In this document: piece after piece, positions 321-63,241 of the stretch
How the letters are laid out: each line of letters begins with the position of its first letter
How positions within the stretch are numbered: the stretch's first letter is position 1
Assembly (NCBI GenBank): GCA_001799565.1
Contig: MGTS01000020.1
Location: 1,104 to 65,103, forward strand
DNA length: 64,000 bases
From: Elusimicrobia bacterium GWA2_51_34
Lineage (GTDB): Bacteria; Elusimicrobiota; Elusimicrobia; Elusimicrobiales; UBA9959
Reading direction: 5' to 3'
Notes under the pieces: model-generated
What the model saw: the letters and a program-made list of their open reading frames with translations, nothing else
What the model was told of the DNA's origin: nothing
Databases searched by the model: none
Program-made: the position numbers and the translations under genes

Positions 321-394
321 GCTGGTAGGCTAGTATGCGGGTATGCCTTATAGAGGAATTCCTTAAAAGCCTACAAGCTTACCCGCCTACCAGC
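321..394. repeat. Periodic-arm inverted repeat, GGTAGGC/AGTATGC type (nusG-rplK spacer)
   Basis: The arms are built of 8-nt units (GCTGGTAG GCTAGTAT GCGGGTAT / GCCTACAA GCTTACCC GCCTACCA). The loop contains GGAATTCC (355-362). Confidence 0.85.
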
Positions 395-423
395 GGTTCT
401 ACTCATAACTATTGCGAGGTATT

Positions 424-858
424 ATGGCCAAAGTAAAAAAAATAAAGACAATGATAAAGCTGCAGATTCCGGCAGGCGCTGCGAATCCCGCTCCGCCCGT
501 GGGCCCCGCTCTGGGCCAGCACGGAGTCAACATAATGGATTTTTGTAAGCAGTTCAACGAAAAAACCAAGAAGCTTGAACAAGGCGTGCCGATACCGGTT
601 GTTATTACGGTGTTCGAAGACAGGACTTTTATCTTCGTCACCAAAATGCCGCCGATGTCCGCGCTGGTGAAAAAAGCGGCGGGACTTGCCAAGGGGTCCG
701 GCGAGGCCAACAAGACGAAAGTCGGCAAGCTGGAACTTAAACAGGTTGAGGAAATTGCCAGGATAAAACTGCCGGACCTTAACACCAAGGATATAAAGCA
801 GGCCATGAAAATGGTGAAGGGCACCGCCCGCAGCATGGGCGTGGATGTTGCAGAGTAA
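424..858 (+). CDS. rplK: 50S ribosomal protein L11
   Basis: '[45 protein letters not shown]' is a classic L11 N-terminus. The ATG at 424 is preceded by GAGGT. The track start at 412 is probably too early. Confidence 0.95.
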
Positions 859-868
859 CAGAAGTGGT

Positions 869-917
869 CAGTAACCAGTAACCAGTAACCAGTAACCAGT
901 AACCAGTAACCAGTAAC
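869..917. repeat. Perfect tandem heptamer (CAGTAAC)x7 (rplK-rplA spacer)
   Basis: There are seven exact copies, flanked by degenerate units. No complementary arm was found. Confidence 0.95.
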
Positions 918-1004
918 TGGATACCGGAGTAAACCGGTAACCGCAGTTGAAGAGGGAGCGGACCCTCAAAAGGGCGCCGCGCTAAAACCTCAAAGGACAA
1001 TAAA

Positions 1005-1688
1005 ATGGGAAAGAGACTTGCTGCCATAAAAAAAGGACTGGAGCTTGTAAAAAAGTACAAAGTGGGTGAGGCTGTGGCGATAGTAAAAAAGAACGCCAAT
1101 GCCAAGTTCGACGAGACTGTGGAACTTCACATAAAGCTGGGAATAGATGTGAAACAGTCGGACCAGCAGGTGCGTGGTATTATAAGCCTGCCGCACGGCA
1201 CCGGCAAGACCAAAAAGGTGGCCGTCATTGCTAAGGGCGAAAAGACCCAGGAAGCTCAGGATGCCGGAGCCGACATGGTGGGCGGCGCGGAGTTGATAGA
1301 GAAAATTTTCAAGGGTTTTATGGATTTTGACGTGCTTGTAGTGACCCCCGACATGATGAAAGACGCGGCGAAACTCGGTAAAACGCTTGGCCCCCGCGGA
1401 CTTATGCCCAACCCCAAAAGCGGAACCGTAACTTTTGATATAGCTAAGACGGTCAAAGAATTGAAGGCCGGCCGCATTGAATTTAAAGCCGACCCCCAGG
1501 GTATCGTTCACGCGCCTGCCGGCAAGGCCTCGTTCCCTGAAGGCAGTCTTGTGGAAAATGTGCAGGCTATCATAGACGCCGTGCTTAAAAGCAAACCGGC
1601 TTCTTCAAAGGGCGTGTATATGCAATCCGTTTTCATAAGTTCAACTATGGGCCCGGGCTTGCCCGTTCTGGTTGAAAAAGCGGGATAA
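1005..1688 (+). CDS. rplA: 50S ribosomal protein L1
   Basis: A 227-aa ORF with L1-like '[31 protein letters not shown]' and '[15 protein letters not shown]'. It follows rplK. Confidence 0.95.
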
Positions 1689-1729
1689 AGCCAGGGGGAT
1701 ATGTAAATTTGCGTAACTGCTCAGATAGC

Positions 1730-1788
1730 CAGAATTCAGGAGTCAGGAGTCAGAAGTCGGAATTCTGAATTCTGACTCCTGATTTCTG
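1730..1788. repeat. Periodic-arm hairpin, CAGAATT/CAGGAGT type (rplA-hppA spacer)
   Basis: The units read CAGAATT CAGGAGT CAGGAGT CAGAAGT CGGAATT CTGAATT CTGACTC CTGATTT CTG, with a strict 7-nt period. The two halves are largely complementary, and the centre is GGAATTCTGA. Confidence 0.9.
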
Positions 1789-1825
1789 TTTACCGGAGTA
1801 ATAACATTTTGCGAAGGGGAATATA

Positions 1826-60920: not shown

Positions 60921-60950
60921 AAAGTGATAAACTGTTGCTGTTCAGGTAGA

Positions 60951-61066
60951 CAGAATTCAGAAGTCAGAATTCAGAATGGCCTGTGAATAGGCCTCCAAGG
61001 ATTTGCCGGTCTCTTCAAGCAGCTTTCTTCGATATTCTGACTACTGACTTCTGAATTCTGACTCCT
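60951..61066. repeat. CAGAATT-type periodic-arm inverted repeat between divergent murJ and rpsT
   Basis: CAGAATTCAGAAGTCAGAATTCAGAATGG ... ATTCTGACTACTGACTTCTGAATTCTGACTCCT. It uses the same unit family as 1730-1788. Confidence 0.9.
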
Positions 61067-61100
61067 AACTGCCTGAGTAGTTACGGTAAACTATAATAAT

Positions 61101-61397
61101 ATGGCTAAACTTAAGACCGGACGACATACCAGCGCTATTAAAGCGCACCGTAAATCCGAGCGTCTGGCCTCCAGAAACAGGGGCGTCCATGCCAGGATTC
61201 ATGACGCAGCTAAGGAATTTGACGGCTTGATCGCCAAAAAGGACGTGGAAAACGCGCAGAAACTGCTGCCGAAGGTCCACGCGCTCCTTGATAAGGCCGC
61301 CAAGACCGGCACCATCCACTGGAAGGCCGCCGCCCGCAGGAAATCACGACTTGCCCTGCGCATAAAAACCGCTGTACAGATAACGAATAACAAATAG
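61101..61397 (+). CDS. rpsT: 30S ribosomal protein S20
   Basis: 'MAKLKTGRHTSAIKAHRKSERLASRNRGVHARI' is S20-like. The ORF is basic and 98 aa. Confidence 0.9.
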   Translation: MAKLKTGRHTSAIKAHRKSERLASRNRGVHARIHDAAKEFDGLIAKKDVENAQKLLPKVHALLDKAAKTGTIHWKAAARRKSRLALRIKTAVQITNNK

Positions 61398-61452
61398 CGA
61401 ATAGTGAACAGGGGTTTTAGTTCCTTCCCTTTTCACTGCTTCGCTATTTTGC
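61391..61452. repeat. CGAATAG-type hairpin at the rpsT stop (between convergent rpsT and holA)
   Basis: CAAATAGCGAATAGTGAACAGGGG ... CCCTTTTCACTGCTTCGCTATTTTGC. The loop contains TAGTTCCT. Confidence 0.85.
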
Positions 61453-61481
61453 TTTCCTAAAGATCAATTTTTTCCTGTTTT

Positions 61482-62483
61482 CTACTTAAATCTTAAAATC
61501 TCATAAACTAACTGCCGTATCAGCAGAGCCGGGTTTCTCCCGGAAGAGGACTTAAGCAGTGCTTCTGTTTCCATACAGCGTTTAAGCCCTCTCAATAGTT
61601 TGTCTTCGGAGTAGGCGCCGGCGGCCGCGGACAGATGTCTGTATTGGCCCGGGCTTACGCCCGTCTGATATGAGGCTGACGAGCCGGCTCCCGATGCCTC
61701 AAGCCTTTTAACTTTCAGCAGCCGCTCAAGCGTTCTTGAAACATTATAAAGCAAAACCAGGGGTTCTGCGTCTTCGGCAAGCAGCTTGTCCAGAATAACA
61801 GCGCCGGCTTGCGCGTCGCGCTTGCAGACCGCGTTTGGCAGGTCAAAAGGGTTCTGGTTTTTTGAAAAACCAGCCAGTTCAACCGCGTCGGATGCGCCGA
61901 ACGGCTTTTTGACGCCGTGGTGGTAAAGGGCTATTTTCTCCGCCTCCACGGCAAGGGTGCCCGCGTCGGTGCCCAGCAGTTCCGTCAGGGTTTCAAGGGC
62001 TTCGTCCGATGCCGCGCAACCCGCCGTTTCAAGCTTTTGCCCTAGAAACTTACGCGCCTCAAAGTCGTTTAAGCACTCAAAAATAACCAGGGCGCAGTCC
62101 TGCGCGAGCGCTTTGGCGAACTGGTCGGAAGCTTCATATTTTTTTGAGGAAATAATAAAAAGCGAGGTAAAGGGCGCGGGGTTTTCCAGATAAGCGGCCA
62201 GCTCACGAGCGTTATCTTTTTTCAGTTTGTCGCAGCGCTTTATAACCAAAAAGCGTCTCTCGCTCAGCATGGGGGCGGTTTGTGCTTCGCCGGCAATTTC
62301 GCGCATGTCGGCGGTTTCAGCGTAGTGGACTGAAAAATCAAAAGCATTCGGCTTAAAAAGCGCTTTCAAGCGAGCTAAAGCCGCTTCCTGAAGGGCATGT
62401 TCTTCTCCGCAAAAATAATATACGGGCCGCAATTTATTTTTGCGCCACTCTTCTTCCATGGCCTGCGGAGTCAGTGTCTGCAT
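61482..62483 (-). CDS. holA: DNA polymerase III delta subunit
   Basis: 'LRPVYYFCGEEHALQEAAL' is a delta-like N-terminus. The leuS-lptE-holA synteny is present. The ATG at 62483 overlaps the upstream stop (TAATG), and the track start at 62654 lies inside lptE. Confidence 0.75.
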   Translation of the reverse strand: MQTLTPQAMEEEWRKNKLRPVYYFCGEEHALQEAALARLKALFKPNAFDFSVHYAETADMREIAGEAQTAPMLSERRFLVIKRCDKLKKDNARELAAYLENPAPFTSLFIISSKKYEASDQFAKALAQDCALVIFECLNDFEARKFLGQKLETAGCAASDEALETLTELLGTDAGTLAVEAEKIALYHHGVKKPFGASDAVELAGFSKNQNPFDLPNAVCKRDAQAGAVILDKLLAEDAEPLVLLYNVSRTLERLLKVKRLEASGAGSSASYQTGVSPGQYRHLSAAAGAYSEDKLLRGLKRCMETEALLKSSSGRNPALLIRQLVYEILRFK

Positions 62484-63115
62484 TATTTTCCGGCGGCGGT
62501 TGAAACCGGCACCTCCGGGGAGGGCCTGGGGCCGGCGGCCGGCGGGTCCGAGTTGTCCAGGGACCCTTGCGGAACGCTTCGCTGTGATACGCTGGTGACG
62601 GAACCGAAACCTTCCACCGTGCGCCGGACGATGGCTTTTGAAAGTATCTCCCAAAGCGCTTCCCTGGCCTGTTCTTCGCTCAAGCCGCCCGGCAGCGTTG
62701 AGGCGGAATAGATCTTTGTCACCTGCAGCGCCGGTTCTTCCCAGAGGTAGCGGTTATATGCCTTGTCAAGCAGGCGTACCACCGCCACCACATTAATTTT
62801 ATAAACCGTGGGCACCAGGTTAACATCGTATTGTATGGGGGTGAGTATATAATTGCTTATCTCTCCCACCAGCACGCCGTCGGCCGAACTTTCGGGGGAT
62901 ACCGAGTACTCTCCGTTTTTTAAAAACTCATCAATTACCTTAAGCATCAGTTTTTCTTCAAGGCCGAACTGCGGTGTTTTATTCAAGAAAGGCCTTACAG
63001 CTATCTTTTTTATATGCTGCGGCATTTTCTGCTCAGCCGGGTTGTACTGTATTTCTGAAGTTGAGCAGCCGGCTATAGCCAGCGCCGCCGCGAATATTAT
63101 AATTCCATGTTTCAT
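62483..63115 (-). CDS. lptE: LPS-assembly lipoprotein LptE-like, with a Pro-rich C-terminal tail
   Basis: It has the lipobox 'ALAIAGCS', is about 210 aa, and sits between leuS and holA as in E. coli. The assignment rests mainly on synteny. Confidence 0.55.
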   Translation of the reverse strand: MKHGIIIFAAALAIAGCSTSEIQYNPAEQKMPQHIKKIAVRPFLNKTPQFGLEEKLMLKVIDEFLKNGEYSVSPESSADGVLVGEISNYILTPIQYDVNLVPTVYKINVVAVVRLLDKAYNRYLWEEPALQVTKIYSASTLPGGLSEEQAREALWEILSKAIVRRTVEGFGSVTSVSQRSVPQGSLDNSDPPAAGPRPSPEVPVSTAAGK

Positions 63116-63155
63116 AATCTCCCCCCGTTTTGATTTTTAGGTGACTGTTAAGGTG

Positions 63156-63241
63156 GATAGGCTATAGGCAGTTAGGCTGTAGGTAAGAAGCCGAAAAATA
63201 GACTAATATCCTGCATCCTACAGCCTTCAGCCTACAGCCTG
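63156..63241. repeat. TAGGCTG-type periodic-arm inverted repeat (lptE-leuS spacer, overlaps the leuS stop)
   Basis: GATAGGCTATAGGCAGTTAGGCTGTAGGTAAG ... TCCTGCATCCTACAGCCTTCAGCCTACAGCCTG. Confidence 0.9.

Follow-up and report, generated by a model that had tools for sequence, protein, structure and literature searches.

Introduction

Tandem repeats of seven nucleotides are said to have been described first in 1990, by Mazel, as the short tandemly repeated repetitive (STRR) sequences of cyanobacteria. Between hupS and hupL, 7-bp STRR units form a hairpin for which roles in transcript stability, translational coupling and pausing or termination of transcription have been proposed (PMC2670836); Jackman & Mulligan 1995 is known, by its title in the same paper, as further STRR work. 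Here we examine a 64-kb stretch of DNA, referred to throughout as the window, from Elusimicrobia bacterium GWA2_51_34 (phylum Elusimicrobiota; contig MGTS01000020.1, positions 1,104 to 65,103 of assembly GCA_001799565.1), in which intergenic spacers carry elements built from tandem 7- or 8-nt units, usually as two complementary arms around a loop. The elements form a genuine and dense class that belongs to an already known kind. We hold with modest confidence that they are dispersed, slippage-prone palindromic intergenic repeats, each folding out in the gap from a stop codon to the following start codon.

The window elements resemble the STRR in being tandem heptamers dispersed in many intergenic copies, in forming hairpins between co-transcribed genes, in occupying spacers that are variable yet structured among close strains, and in the roles that have been proposed for them. 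They differ in their units, the canonical STRR units being missing from the window, and in their hosts, a (filamentous) cyanobacterium on one side and groundwater Elusimicrobia metagenome-assembled genomes (MAGs) on the other. In the STRR literature we found no description of the arm polarity, loop motif or stop-to-start placement reported below.

A second related system comes from Geobacter metallireducens GS-15, where Aklujkar et al. 2009 described 53 pairs of sites on opposite strands (Gmet_I1xx-I3xx) as "putative global regulator binding sites" (PMC2700814). In every site 3-5 units of 7-9 nt follow one another in tandem, and the units fall into class 1 (GTTGCTYN), class 2 (TCTCCGTS[Y]) and class 3 (MTYCTGA); the pairs sit between neighbouring genes, downstream of the one and upstream of the other, for example between proB and proA or moaA and mosC, and binding by IHF/HU was put forward by the authors as a putative function (PMC2700814). 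The elements of the window are alike in having opposite-strand sites within one intergenic region at variable distance, tandem units of this length, a purine-type array on the 5' side and a pyrimidine-type array on the 3' side, and the same position between gene X and gene X+1, and the class-3 consensus is the very unit of two of them (E3 and E23). The two cases differ in phylum (Desulfuromonadota against Elusimicrobiota) and density (53 pairs in 4 Mb against ~24 elements in 64 kb), most of the window families are not described in PMC2700814, and its authors read the sites as IHF/HU sites and not as hairpins, both readings being predictions.

Other heptamers have been reported from several phyla. 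Direct repeats of TAACTGA occur just upstream of start codons in Beggiatoaceae, Cyanobacteria and Bacteroidetes, with Csp, S1 or CsrA as proposed binders (PMC4679880), and the GGGAATC/GGGGAYT repeats of Xanthomonas and Nostoc form G-quadruplexes, some of those in Xanthomonas being inverted pairs (PMC4692102). Like the window elements, these are intergenic tandem heptamers of patchy distribution across phyla, present in the same gaps of sister species with variation in length and sequence; unlike them, they tend to be direct repeats in which a single unit dominates each genome, and dimers of their units are not found in the window. The AATCGGG units of relatives of the window organism resemble a rotation of GGGAATC, which we offer as a lead only. 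More generally, heptamers are the most over-represented class of long simple sequence repeats in many bacteria, an excess put down to slippage of the polymerase (Mrazek 2007, as cited in PMC4679880 and PMC4692102). Stabilising stem-loops at sites of transcript processing are described for Anabaena nif/vnf (PMC4284476).

A preliminary description of the window, made from its letters, had recognised no named repeat class in these elements. That was wrong, since they match both the STRR hairpins (PMC2670836) and the Geobacter class 1-3 pairs (PMC2700814). What the window adds is a very dense case of intergenic heptamer repeats in an uncultured phylum, together with regularities that can be tested: arm polarity, stop-to-start placement, a loop motif, conservation of the occupied gaps with turnover of the units, and near-identical unit strings across phyla.

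Density and stability of the repeat class

A strict autocorrelation scan of the window returned 16 runs of period 7 and four of period 8, against 0.05 and 0 in Markov-1 shuffles, and 0-2 runs at each of the periods 5, 6, 9 and 10. Tandem Repeats Finder placed period-7/8 arrays at every coordinate for which tandem units had been reported before. When all spacers were folded and searched for inverted repeats, elements (numbered E1 to E25, with coordinates given in the inventory below) were found in ~24 of roughly 40 spacers, which bears out the earlier count of at least 24. Complementary arms around a loop had been claimed for most of them, and this too held: 19 are hairpins in which an array of a unit U is followed by a centre and by an array of its reverse complement, with the arms 1-95 nt apart, and five are arrays without a partner arm. 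Among 32 loosely called runs, complementary arms were present in 17. The 12 hairpins that were fold-tested gave predicted energies of -26 to -56 kcal/mol, with z-scores of -3.9 to -7.6, and about ten unrelated unit families lie within the 64 kb.

The arrays are nearly all intergenic. Genuine genes contain only two weak runs, at 37843-37874 in dnaX and 62521-62546 in holA. Two apparent coding cases, at 12684-12830 and 13611-13726, lie in over-extended N-termini of open reading frames (ORFs) and are thus intergenic, because the Pfam match begins only at residue 63 in one ORF and at residue 73 in the other. The Pfam-confirmed gene map takes in nusG, rplK, rplA, hppA, infC, pheST, malQ, dnaX, recR, comEC, nadK, recN, gltX, pilBTC, uvrC, murJ, rpsT and holA, and the gene contexts given in the preliminary description were right: elements stand within nusG/rplK/rplA, dnaX/recR and pilB/T/C, between the divergent starts of murJ and rpsT (E23) and between the convergent ends of rpsT and holA (E24). 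An Rfam scan of the window gave no match at or above the gathering threshold, and no tRNAs were found there.

At least 10 independent assemblies, produced by different pipelines and drawn from NCBI, ENA, JGI and Logan, have identical element arrays. The exact RplA protein was found on contigs of GCA_003446275.1, GCA_001799745.1 and GCA_001799915.1, of a JGI metagenome and of ENA groundwater re-assemblies; all these contigs match the window at 100% identity, apart from runs of N adjoining the repeats. A look-up with RecR added ten further contigs in which all arrays are identical, the sole differences being three single-nucleotide polymorphisms and an 18-nt indel in comEC, all outside the arrays. 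The elements are therefore real and population-stable. An assembly artefact, against which the preliminary description had cautioned, is ruled out by this identity and by like architecture in dozens of other MAGs; hypermutable contingency loci are ruled out at this timescale, the few strain differences all falling outside the arrays. Assemblies and scaffolds do break at the repeats, the practical side of which is fragmented MAGs and over-extended ORFs. The comEC indel (40963-40980) is in frame and splits population variants, and several assemblies stop there.

Polarity, loop motif and placement

All 34 of the elements compared have a purine-rich 5' arm (A 0.32, G 0.35, C 0.12) and a pyrimidine-rich 3' arm, whereas non-periodic inverted repeats have no such polarity (17/35, 151/304 and 300/718). 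Because the reverse complement of an element keeps the same form, this polarity is a property of the palindrome and is not tied to the direction of transcription. The half elements, which comprise E2, E4, E6 and E10 of the window as well as those at L013 and L045 (L numbers denote loci from relatives and outgroups), are all of purine type on the sense strand and lie immediately 3' of a stop codon.

Hairpins begin within 7 nt of a stop codon in 11 of 17 cases and, as read from their coordinates, usually end 5-30 nt before the next start, so that they span the gap from stop to start and both codons come to lie at the base of the stem. The array begins in the stop codon itself in E4, E11, E14, E16, E20 and E25, and stop triplets are two- to threefold enriched in 5' arms, with 0.11 per position where the background has 0.04 and 3' arms have 0.03. 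That such arms close all three reading frames is only partly true, all frames being closed in only 4 of 34 aligned arms. The 3' arms contain no Shine-Dalgarno (SD)-like 4-mers and few start triplets.

The centres of the hairpins are enriched for GGARYTCC (seven in 1.7 kb of centres, against 54 in 570 kb overall) and, 10-26-fold, for the 6-mers TAAGGA, AACTCC and AGTTCC. Many loops carry the consensus TAAGGARYTCCTTA, which combines an SD-like half with an anti-SD-like half and occurs in both orientations. With two mismatches allowed, GGAAYTCCTTA was not enriched across the whole window, the enrichment being confined to hairpin centres.

The units had been called locus-specific, which holds only in part: families, arm ends and loops are shared between loci. 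E1, E5 and E13 have common arm ends and a common loop, the arm ends GCTGGTAGGC...GCCTACCAGC being shared by E1 and E5; E17 and E20 have in common a run of ~35 nt of arm and loop in the alignment, for which BLAST gives 39 nt at 90% identity; cross-matches also connect E3 with E23, and E7, E8, E9 and E14 with one another. Much of the complementarity between the two arms of a locus follows simply from U facing its reverse complement: arm pairing is 76-96% in the native register and still 65-85% after a shift by a whole unit.

Mismatches in the stems, read on the sense strand, comprise 45 of the G.U type and 49 of the A.C type; since the former are not above the latter, RNA-specific selection leaves no visible trace in this test, whose power is low. 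The predicted folds do provide ~20 bp or more of near-continuous double-stranded RNA in a polycistronic transcript, the feature looked for in RNase III sites and in selective RNA processing and stabilisation (SRPS). A T-rich tail follows the stem in 2 of 21 hairpin/direction cases (E19 and E20), four of the 21 being the two directions of E23 and of E24; in the other 19, the 8 nt that follow the stem include no more than 4 T, never as a run. Canonical terminators are kept at the ends of operons, pilC among them (52719-52750, 35357-35395 and 23163-23190). The elements are thus not ordinary intrinsic terminators, in keeping with the earlier remark that U-tracts are mostly missing.

Orthologous gaps in relatives

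A scan of genomes with RplA gave 44 Elusimicrobia loci with conserved nusG-rplK-rplA-hppA synteny and 36 outgroup loci, to which more loci were added through RecR homologues; a metagenome scan with RecR gave only distant relatives, which were taken as controls. Hairpins with periodic arms number 14 in the window, 20 in 507 kb of relatives and three in 1.1 Mb of outgroups, and only one of these last three looks genuine.

The occupied gaps are conserved to a greater extent than the units that fill them. UBA9634, the closest relative (RplA 92% identity), has heptamer hairpins at the same gaps with unrelated units, namely AGTCACA at nusG-rplK, ATAGGGT at rplK-rplA and CAGAATT at hppA-DUF218. Across the relatives, hairpins of unrelated units or no spacer at all are found at nusG-rplK, rplK-rplA, hppA-DUF218, hypothetical gene-dnaX, dnaX-recR, recR-comEC and nadK-recN. 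At the hypothetical gene-dnaX gap, where E13 lies in the window, L157 and L160 have other unit families and L161 has nothing, and the dnaX/recR junction consists of an ATGA overlap in L160 and of TAAAATG in L161, with no spacer in either. Unit families of the window turn up in other gaps in L007 and L160; L007 has a CAGAATT-family hairpin at hppA-DUF218, the gap of E4, and carries the family of E23 in a gap other than that of E23. L045 carries the same CAGTAAC array as E2 in the same rplK-rplA gap.

In ~40 species the rplK-rplA gap is laid out alike, with a hairpin that varies standing between the stop codon and a conserved L1-leader-like structure, after which come the SD and the start codon. 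In ~13 species this hairpin is built from heptamer or octamer arrays, which between them use at least seven different units; in the rest it is a plain GC-rich stem. At rplA-hppA, most species have a canonical terminator, and a heptamer hairpin is found in the window, L010, L012, L013 and L014. Co-variation of the arms in orthologous spacers, proposed at the outset as a check, was observed: four orthologous hairpins (L017, L020, L027 and L034) show seven double changes in register, against 3.2 +/- 1.1 in shuffles, none of 500 of which reached seven, and 0-4 in slid controls. That pairing is maintained is seen both from this covariation and from the replacement, in the same gaps, of plain hairpins or terminators.

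Several side observations concern the same loci. Just upstream of rplA, the window (~950-1000) and the rplK-rplA spacers of L007-L048 contain the conserved structure GAGGRAGCGG...CCGCGC..AACCTC, which is probably an L1-binding autoregulatory leader; no Rfam family matched it at threshold. Its apical stem is wholly different between L010 and L012, and the adjacent heptamer hairpin is identical in the two. The rplK leader of most relatives (L009-L048) runs from AAGGAG through a small TTAAGGnnnnCCTTAA hairpin and ~10 nt to the ATG, which places the SD ~35 nt from the start; the small hairpin may bring the SD close to the start codon, and its tip resembles the loop motif of the heptamer elements. 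Within the histidine-kinase ORF of UBA9634 there is an (AGCGAAT)2-3 array in a stop-free frame (L160 18886-18925), so small arrays can sit in coding linkers. In an unrelated organism (L153 5960-6001; RecR 36% identical), a heptamer hairpin ATGATGAACGATGAATG..CATTCATCGTTCATCAT ends exactly at the recR start.

Unit families in other phyla and other repeat classes

Positions 1760-1789 of the window, within E3 (GAATTCTGAATTCTGACTCCTGATTTCTGT), are identical to the G. metallireducens site Gmet_I301A at 29 of 30 nt and have the same polarity, and E23 is identical to it at 27 of 28 nt. In exact-pattern scans of IMG/VR, (CGAATAG)3 was found in 44 stretches and (CAGTAAC)3 in 20, against four and five for scrambled heptamers, and three MTYCTGA units were found in at least 120 stretches. 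The CGAATAG arrays of IMG/VR, on unrelated contigs with a median GC of 0.65, have a complementary arm downstream in 33 of 49 cases and upstream in 1 of 49. A search for a recurrent neighbour protein around the IMG/VR loci returned phage head genes only.

No dimers of the STRR units CCCCAGT, TTGGTCA and CAACAGT occur in the window or in 47 Elusimicrobia loci, nor do the Geobacter class 1 and 2 units occur in the window or its relatives. Identity with the known heptamers was likewise tried for STRR1-3, TAACTGA, GGGAATC, GGGGAYT, GGACCGG and Geobacter classes 1 and 2, without a match. We found no literature on such repeats in Elusimicrobia.

The REP/BIME/REPIN palindromes and the miniature inverted-repeat transposable elements (MITEs; Correia/NEMIS, ERIC) are also dispersed extragenic palindromes. 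They too show turnover between relatives, lead assemblies to break and are tolerated in the gaps of co-transcribed genes. The window elements differ from them in lacking a single genome-wide consensus and in having arms that are tandem arrays of short units. They do not fit REP or REPIN, since ~10 unrelated unit families rule out one consensus and the REP hallmark GTAG(G), with GTAG at the 5' end, is carried by three window families only. Among the window ORFs scanned, none had a Pfam match to the REP-associated tyrosine transposase RAYT (a Y1 transposase), and no target-site duplication, as would mark a MITE, was seen by eye at the flanks of E1, E5 and E13 or in filled versus empty gaps. As had been noted earlier, these are not CRISPR arrays either: the units of 7-8 nt run head to tail and have no spacers.

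Proposed origin and possible function

A repeat class that lives at the DNA level is favoured here because its properties are strand-symmetric, its families are dispersed within genomes, among sister species and across phyla, its turnover exceeds point substitution, and assemblies break at it. The preliminary description had offered two options, RNase III-type stems or DNA-level slippage with hairpin templating, and the second fits better, given that there is no G.U excess, that the loop motif occurs both ways round, that polarity is strand-symmetric and that the families are dispersed. An element is built of a purine-rich 5' array of 7/8-nt units, a short centre often bearing TAAGGARYTCCTTA and a complementary pyrimidine-rich 3' array. 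The arrays would grow, shrink and homogenise through replication slippage, with the register of the arms kept either by templating within the element or by selection, and unit families would spread between spacers and evidently between distant hosts too. An insert in a stop-to-start gap could persist by extruding as one long hairpin, which would keep the stop and start codons at the base of the stem and hence disturb gene expression little. In polycistronic mRNA the elements would become duplexes of 20-40 bp, which could be cut by RNase III, hold back 3' exonucleases or form bridges that couple termination to reinitiation. RNase III processing, 3'-end protection and termination-reinitiation coupling are plausible consequences and classical intrinsic termination is unlikely for most elements; the repeats may be tolerated, and possibly co-opted.

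A number of observations count against such dispersed, slippage-prone repeats. No transposase, target-site duplication or other signature of mobility was found in the window. The end of dnaX, AGC GAA TAG, is itself a CGAATAG unit and the end of rplK, GAG TAA C, resembles CAGTAAC, and some arrays look as if they had been nucleated in place from the end of a gene. Slippage is not fast, as there is no copy-number polymorphism among at least 10 population assemblies. The covariation, together with the replacement of a terminator at rplA-hppA, is equally compatible with a selected RNA function, and for one orthologous set RNAalifold, a method that favours G.U, gave ~10 G.U against three A.C; the mismatch test, for its part, is of low power. 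Finally, the IMG/VR counts are not independent, because many of the contigs are related prophages, as indicated by their phage head genes.

The same covariation also speaks for a reading that we consider rather unlikely, in which the elements are dedicated RNA devices: selected stem-loops, between cistrons or in 3' untranslated regions, that are cut by RNase III or block 3' exonucleases and so set the relative stability of cistrons, the tandem-unit build being merely the route by which the stems evolve. The stems are 20-40 bp long and very stable, they stand between co-directional genes in long operon-like runs, their arms co-vary, the rplK-rplA hairpin is present in almost all of ~40 relatives whether periodic or not, and precedents exist in Anabaena nif/vnf (PMC4284476) and in the stability role proposed for STRR (PMC2670836). 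Such selection sits poorly with the sense-strand mismatch counts, with E23 between divergent starts, with relatives that manage without a spacer at the same junctions, with strand-symmetric polarity and loop motif, and with the same sequences in unrelated hosts. That unit families are identical across phyla suggests sequence recognition, and the units have a conserved core with variable positions (for example NNGTANGC and TAGNGNN) and a fixed polarity. Each 7/8-nt unit might accordingly bind a protein that forms polymers along DNA or RNA, for which IHF/HU, Csp, S1 and CsrA are candidates, and the paired inverted arrays might be a regulatory or nucleoid-organising device, as has been proposed for related repeats (PMC2700814, PMC4679880); yet ~10 unrelated families in one genome would need many binders or none, sister species have different units in the same gap, and no candidate protein was identified, so we regard binding arrays as distinctly improbable. 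Very unlikely, in our view, is an unusual type of terminator or attenuator that lacks a U-tract and replaces canonical intrinsic terminators. The T7 run after E19 and the T-rich tail after E20 would suit it, as would the rplA-hppA gap, with its GC-rich stem and T-run in most relatives and its heptamer hairpin in the window and four other loci (L010, L012, L013 and L014); 19 of the 21 scored cases have no T-rich tail, however, elements stand inside obvious operons (pilB-pilT-pilC, dnaX-recR) that have canonical terminators at their ends, and some hairpins stop 5-6 nt ahead of the next start codon.

Least credible of all, and hardly to be entertained as a complete explanation, are purely local microsatellites, formed by in-place slippage of a heptamer at the end of a gene with neither dispersal nor function. 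Arrays often begin in or at a stop codon and reuse the last codons, the excess of heptamers is general in bacteria and attributed to slippage (Mrazek 2007, as cited in PMC4679880 and PMC4692102), and the scrambled control heptamers, too, occur as triplets in IMG/VR, 4-5 times. The complementary second arm is left unexplained, as are the 34/34 polarity, the shared loops and arm ends, the 29/30 identity with Geobacter and the loop motif, and the arms, polarity, shared loops and Geobacter identity already contradict it as a full account. A more speculative extension, also rather unlikely, is a single cross-phylum system with its own trans-acting factor, which would read 7-8-nt units to make, copy or bind the arrays; the hairpins would then be used by the cell as stop-to-start bridges for translational coupling. 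Candidates for the factor are single-strand DNA enzymes, of the Y1 type or another, and nucleic-acid-binding proteins that read heptads. If true, such machinery would explain the TCAGRAK and CGAATAG families in Elusimicrobiota, Desulfuromonadota and high-GC prophages, as well as the invariant purine-5'/pyrimidine-3' polarity and the conserved TAAGGARYTCCTTA tip. Near-identical unit strings tie the uncultured organism to the cultured and tractable G. metallireducens GS-15, and the question is therefore directly testable.

Inventory of elements

Free energies (dG) below are in kcal/mol, and elements have no assigned strand unless one is given. The octamer hairpins of the GGTAGGCT/AGTATGCG family comprise E1 (321-394) in the nusG-rplK gap, with loop GAGGAATTCCTTAAAAG (dG -35.1, z -3.9); E5 (5077-5199), a long hairpin in the DUF218-infC gap with loop GGAGTTCCTAAATTAG (dG -56, z -4.8); and E13 (36372-36455) between a hypothetical gene and dnaX, with loop GAAGGAATTTCTGAAG (dG -42.4, z -4.8). 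To the CAGAATT/CAGAAGT family belong E3 (1713-1805, core 1729-1790) in the rplA-hppA gap, whose 5' arm is made of CAGAATT/CAGGAGT/CAGAAGT and whose 3' arm is made of AATTCTG/ACTCCTG (dG -37.2, z -7.0), and E23 (60948-61066) between the divergent murJ and rpsT starts (dG -55.3, z -5.8).

The CGAATAG family includes E7 (12684-12830), a hairpin with an 82-nt centre in the TAtT-DctP gap (genes on the minus strand), which is intergenic after correction of the DctP start; E9 (15292-15396) in the RidA-malQ gap (dG -44.1, z -7.0); E14 (38350-38421) in the dnaX-recR gap (dG -32.3, z -5.3); and E24 (61380-61450), with CGAATAG/CGAATAA units, between the convergent rpsT and holA ends (dG -26.5, z -5.6). 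The first unit of E14 contains the dnaX stop TAG, and the recR ATG (38428) follows 6 nt past the 3' arm; RecR homologues are 197 aa long. E8 (13611-13726, minus strand), in the malQ-TAtT gap and intergenic after correction of the TAtT start, consists of the adjacent arrays (AGCGAAT)5, (GCGAAGCA)3 and (ACCACTG)4; on the sense (minus) strand a CAGTGGT array is followed by a CTATTCG-type array, and the two are not mutually complementary.

Arrays with CAGT-type units are found in E2 (863-921, plus strand), a half element in the rplK-rplA gap made of (CAGTAAC)7 directly 3' of the rplK stop and without a complementary arm; in E4 (4222-4256, plus strand), a half-element array of CAGTGGC/CAGTGAT/CAGTGGT in the hppA-DUF218 gap that overlaps the hppA stop; and in E18 (48278-48423), between a hypothetical gene and pilB, with CAGTGGC/CAGTTGC arms and a 95-nt centre. 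The TAGGCTG family forms hairpins in E17 (45443-45520), between gltX and a hypothetical gene; E20 (51394-51483), in the pilT-pilC gap and beginning in the pilT stop (dG -39.2, z -4.4); and E25 (63150-63243), with TAGGCTG/TAGGCAG units, 3' of a class I aminoacyl-tRNA synthetase gene on the minus strand and overlapping its stop. The GCCATAAG family is represented by E19 (50207-50296), an GCCATAAG/GCCATAG hairpin in the pilB-pilT gap (dG -48.6, z -4.8) that is the only element followed by a T7 run, and by the arrays of E22 (59207-59362) in the murJ-uvrC gap (genes on the minus strand; dG -46.1, z -7.6), whose main hairpin occupies 59271-59362 and has the loop GAAACTCCTTAAAAG. Related to this family is E10 (16298-16363, minus strand), in which tandem AGCATTTA octamers are followed by three copies of the 15-mer CGTCCCCTATGGCCG, with no complementary arm.

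Among the remaining elements, E15 (39023-39153) is an AGTGATT(A) array hairpin with an 83-nt centre that fills the recR-comEC gap from 1 nt past the stop codon to 5 nt ahead of the start codon. E16 (42005-42094), in the nadK-recN gap, is a AGTCTCAG octamer hairpin beginning in the nadK stop (dG -54.6, z -7.3); the start of the recN ORF is over-extended. E21 (57809-57881), between uvrC and an ogt-like gene (both on the minus strand), is a GATGCAAA octamer array with a weak complementary arm, and E11 (21862-21945), between thiS and an ODP-flavoprotein gene, is a heptamer hairpin with a 3' arm of CCCTATT CTCTATC CGCTAGC and the loop TGGAACTCCTTT. A weak member, E6 (7600-7637, plus strand), holds the degenerate purine-rich heptamers GAAATAG TGAATAG TAAAGTG in the pheS-pheT gap. 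E12 (21491-21575) is a related but distinct hairpin, each arm of which has two tandem units of ~13-17 nt (GATTACACAGATT / AATCTGTGTAATC); it adjoins a terminator after a murC-like gene and is kept at 80-91% in a sister MAG (L007 10273-10377).

Other features of the window

Two stretches of the window are free of elements, one at 23-35 kb (high GC, ORFs without Pfam matches) and one at 52.7-57.5 kb (low GC, toxin-antitoxin genes), a distribution that would fit slow accumulation of elements in long-resident DNA. Within the former, six large ORFs (342-1290 aa) at 23205-35333 have GC contents of 0.54-0.58, no Pfam match at E <= 1e-5 and no heptamer elements. The region 52799-57794, with GC contents of 0.41-0.47 and likewise no heptamer elements, encodes a DUF4143 ATPase, a TPR/CsgG-like lipoprotein and antitoxin-like and ogt-like genes, and may be acquired DNA.

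Tandem repeats of other kinds are also present. Those at 27944-28060, 30174-30220 and 46851-46961 (units of 24/54, 9 and 48 nt) are coding repeats in large ORFs without Pfam matches; their periods are multiples of three and they are unrelated to the intergenic class. A 15-nt tandem, ATACCCCGGTGTTTA x2.5, at 24658-24694 in the spacer after the ORF 23205-24644, falls outside the heptamer class. A GC-rich, non-periodic inverted repeat at 56186-56314, which lies upstream of an antitoxin-like gene (PF21716), has arms of 29 nt that are 90% complementary around a 71-nt centre, and the spacer around it (56120-56406) folds at -116 kcal/mol. The convergent spacer after pheT (10203-10663; 460 nt) contains nested GC-rich palindromes without heptamer periodicity and folds at -175 kcal/mol.

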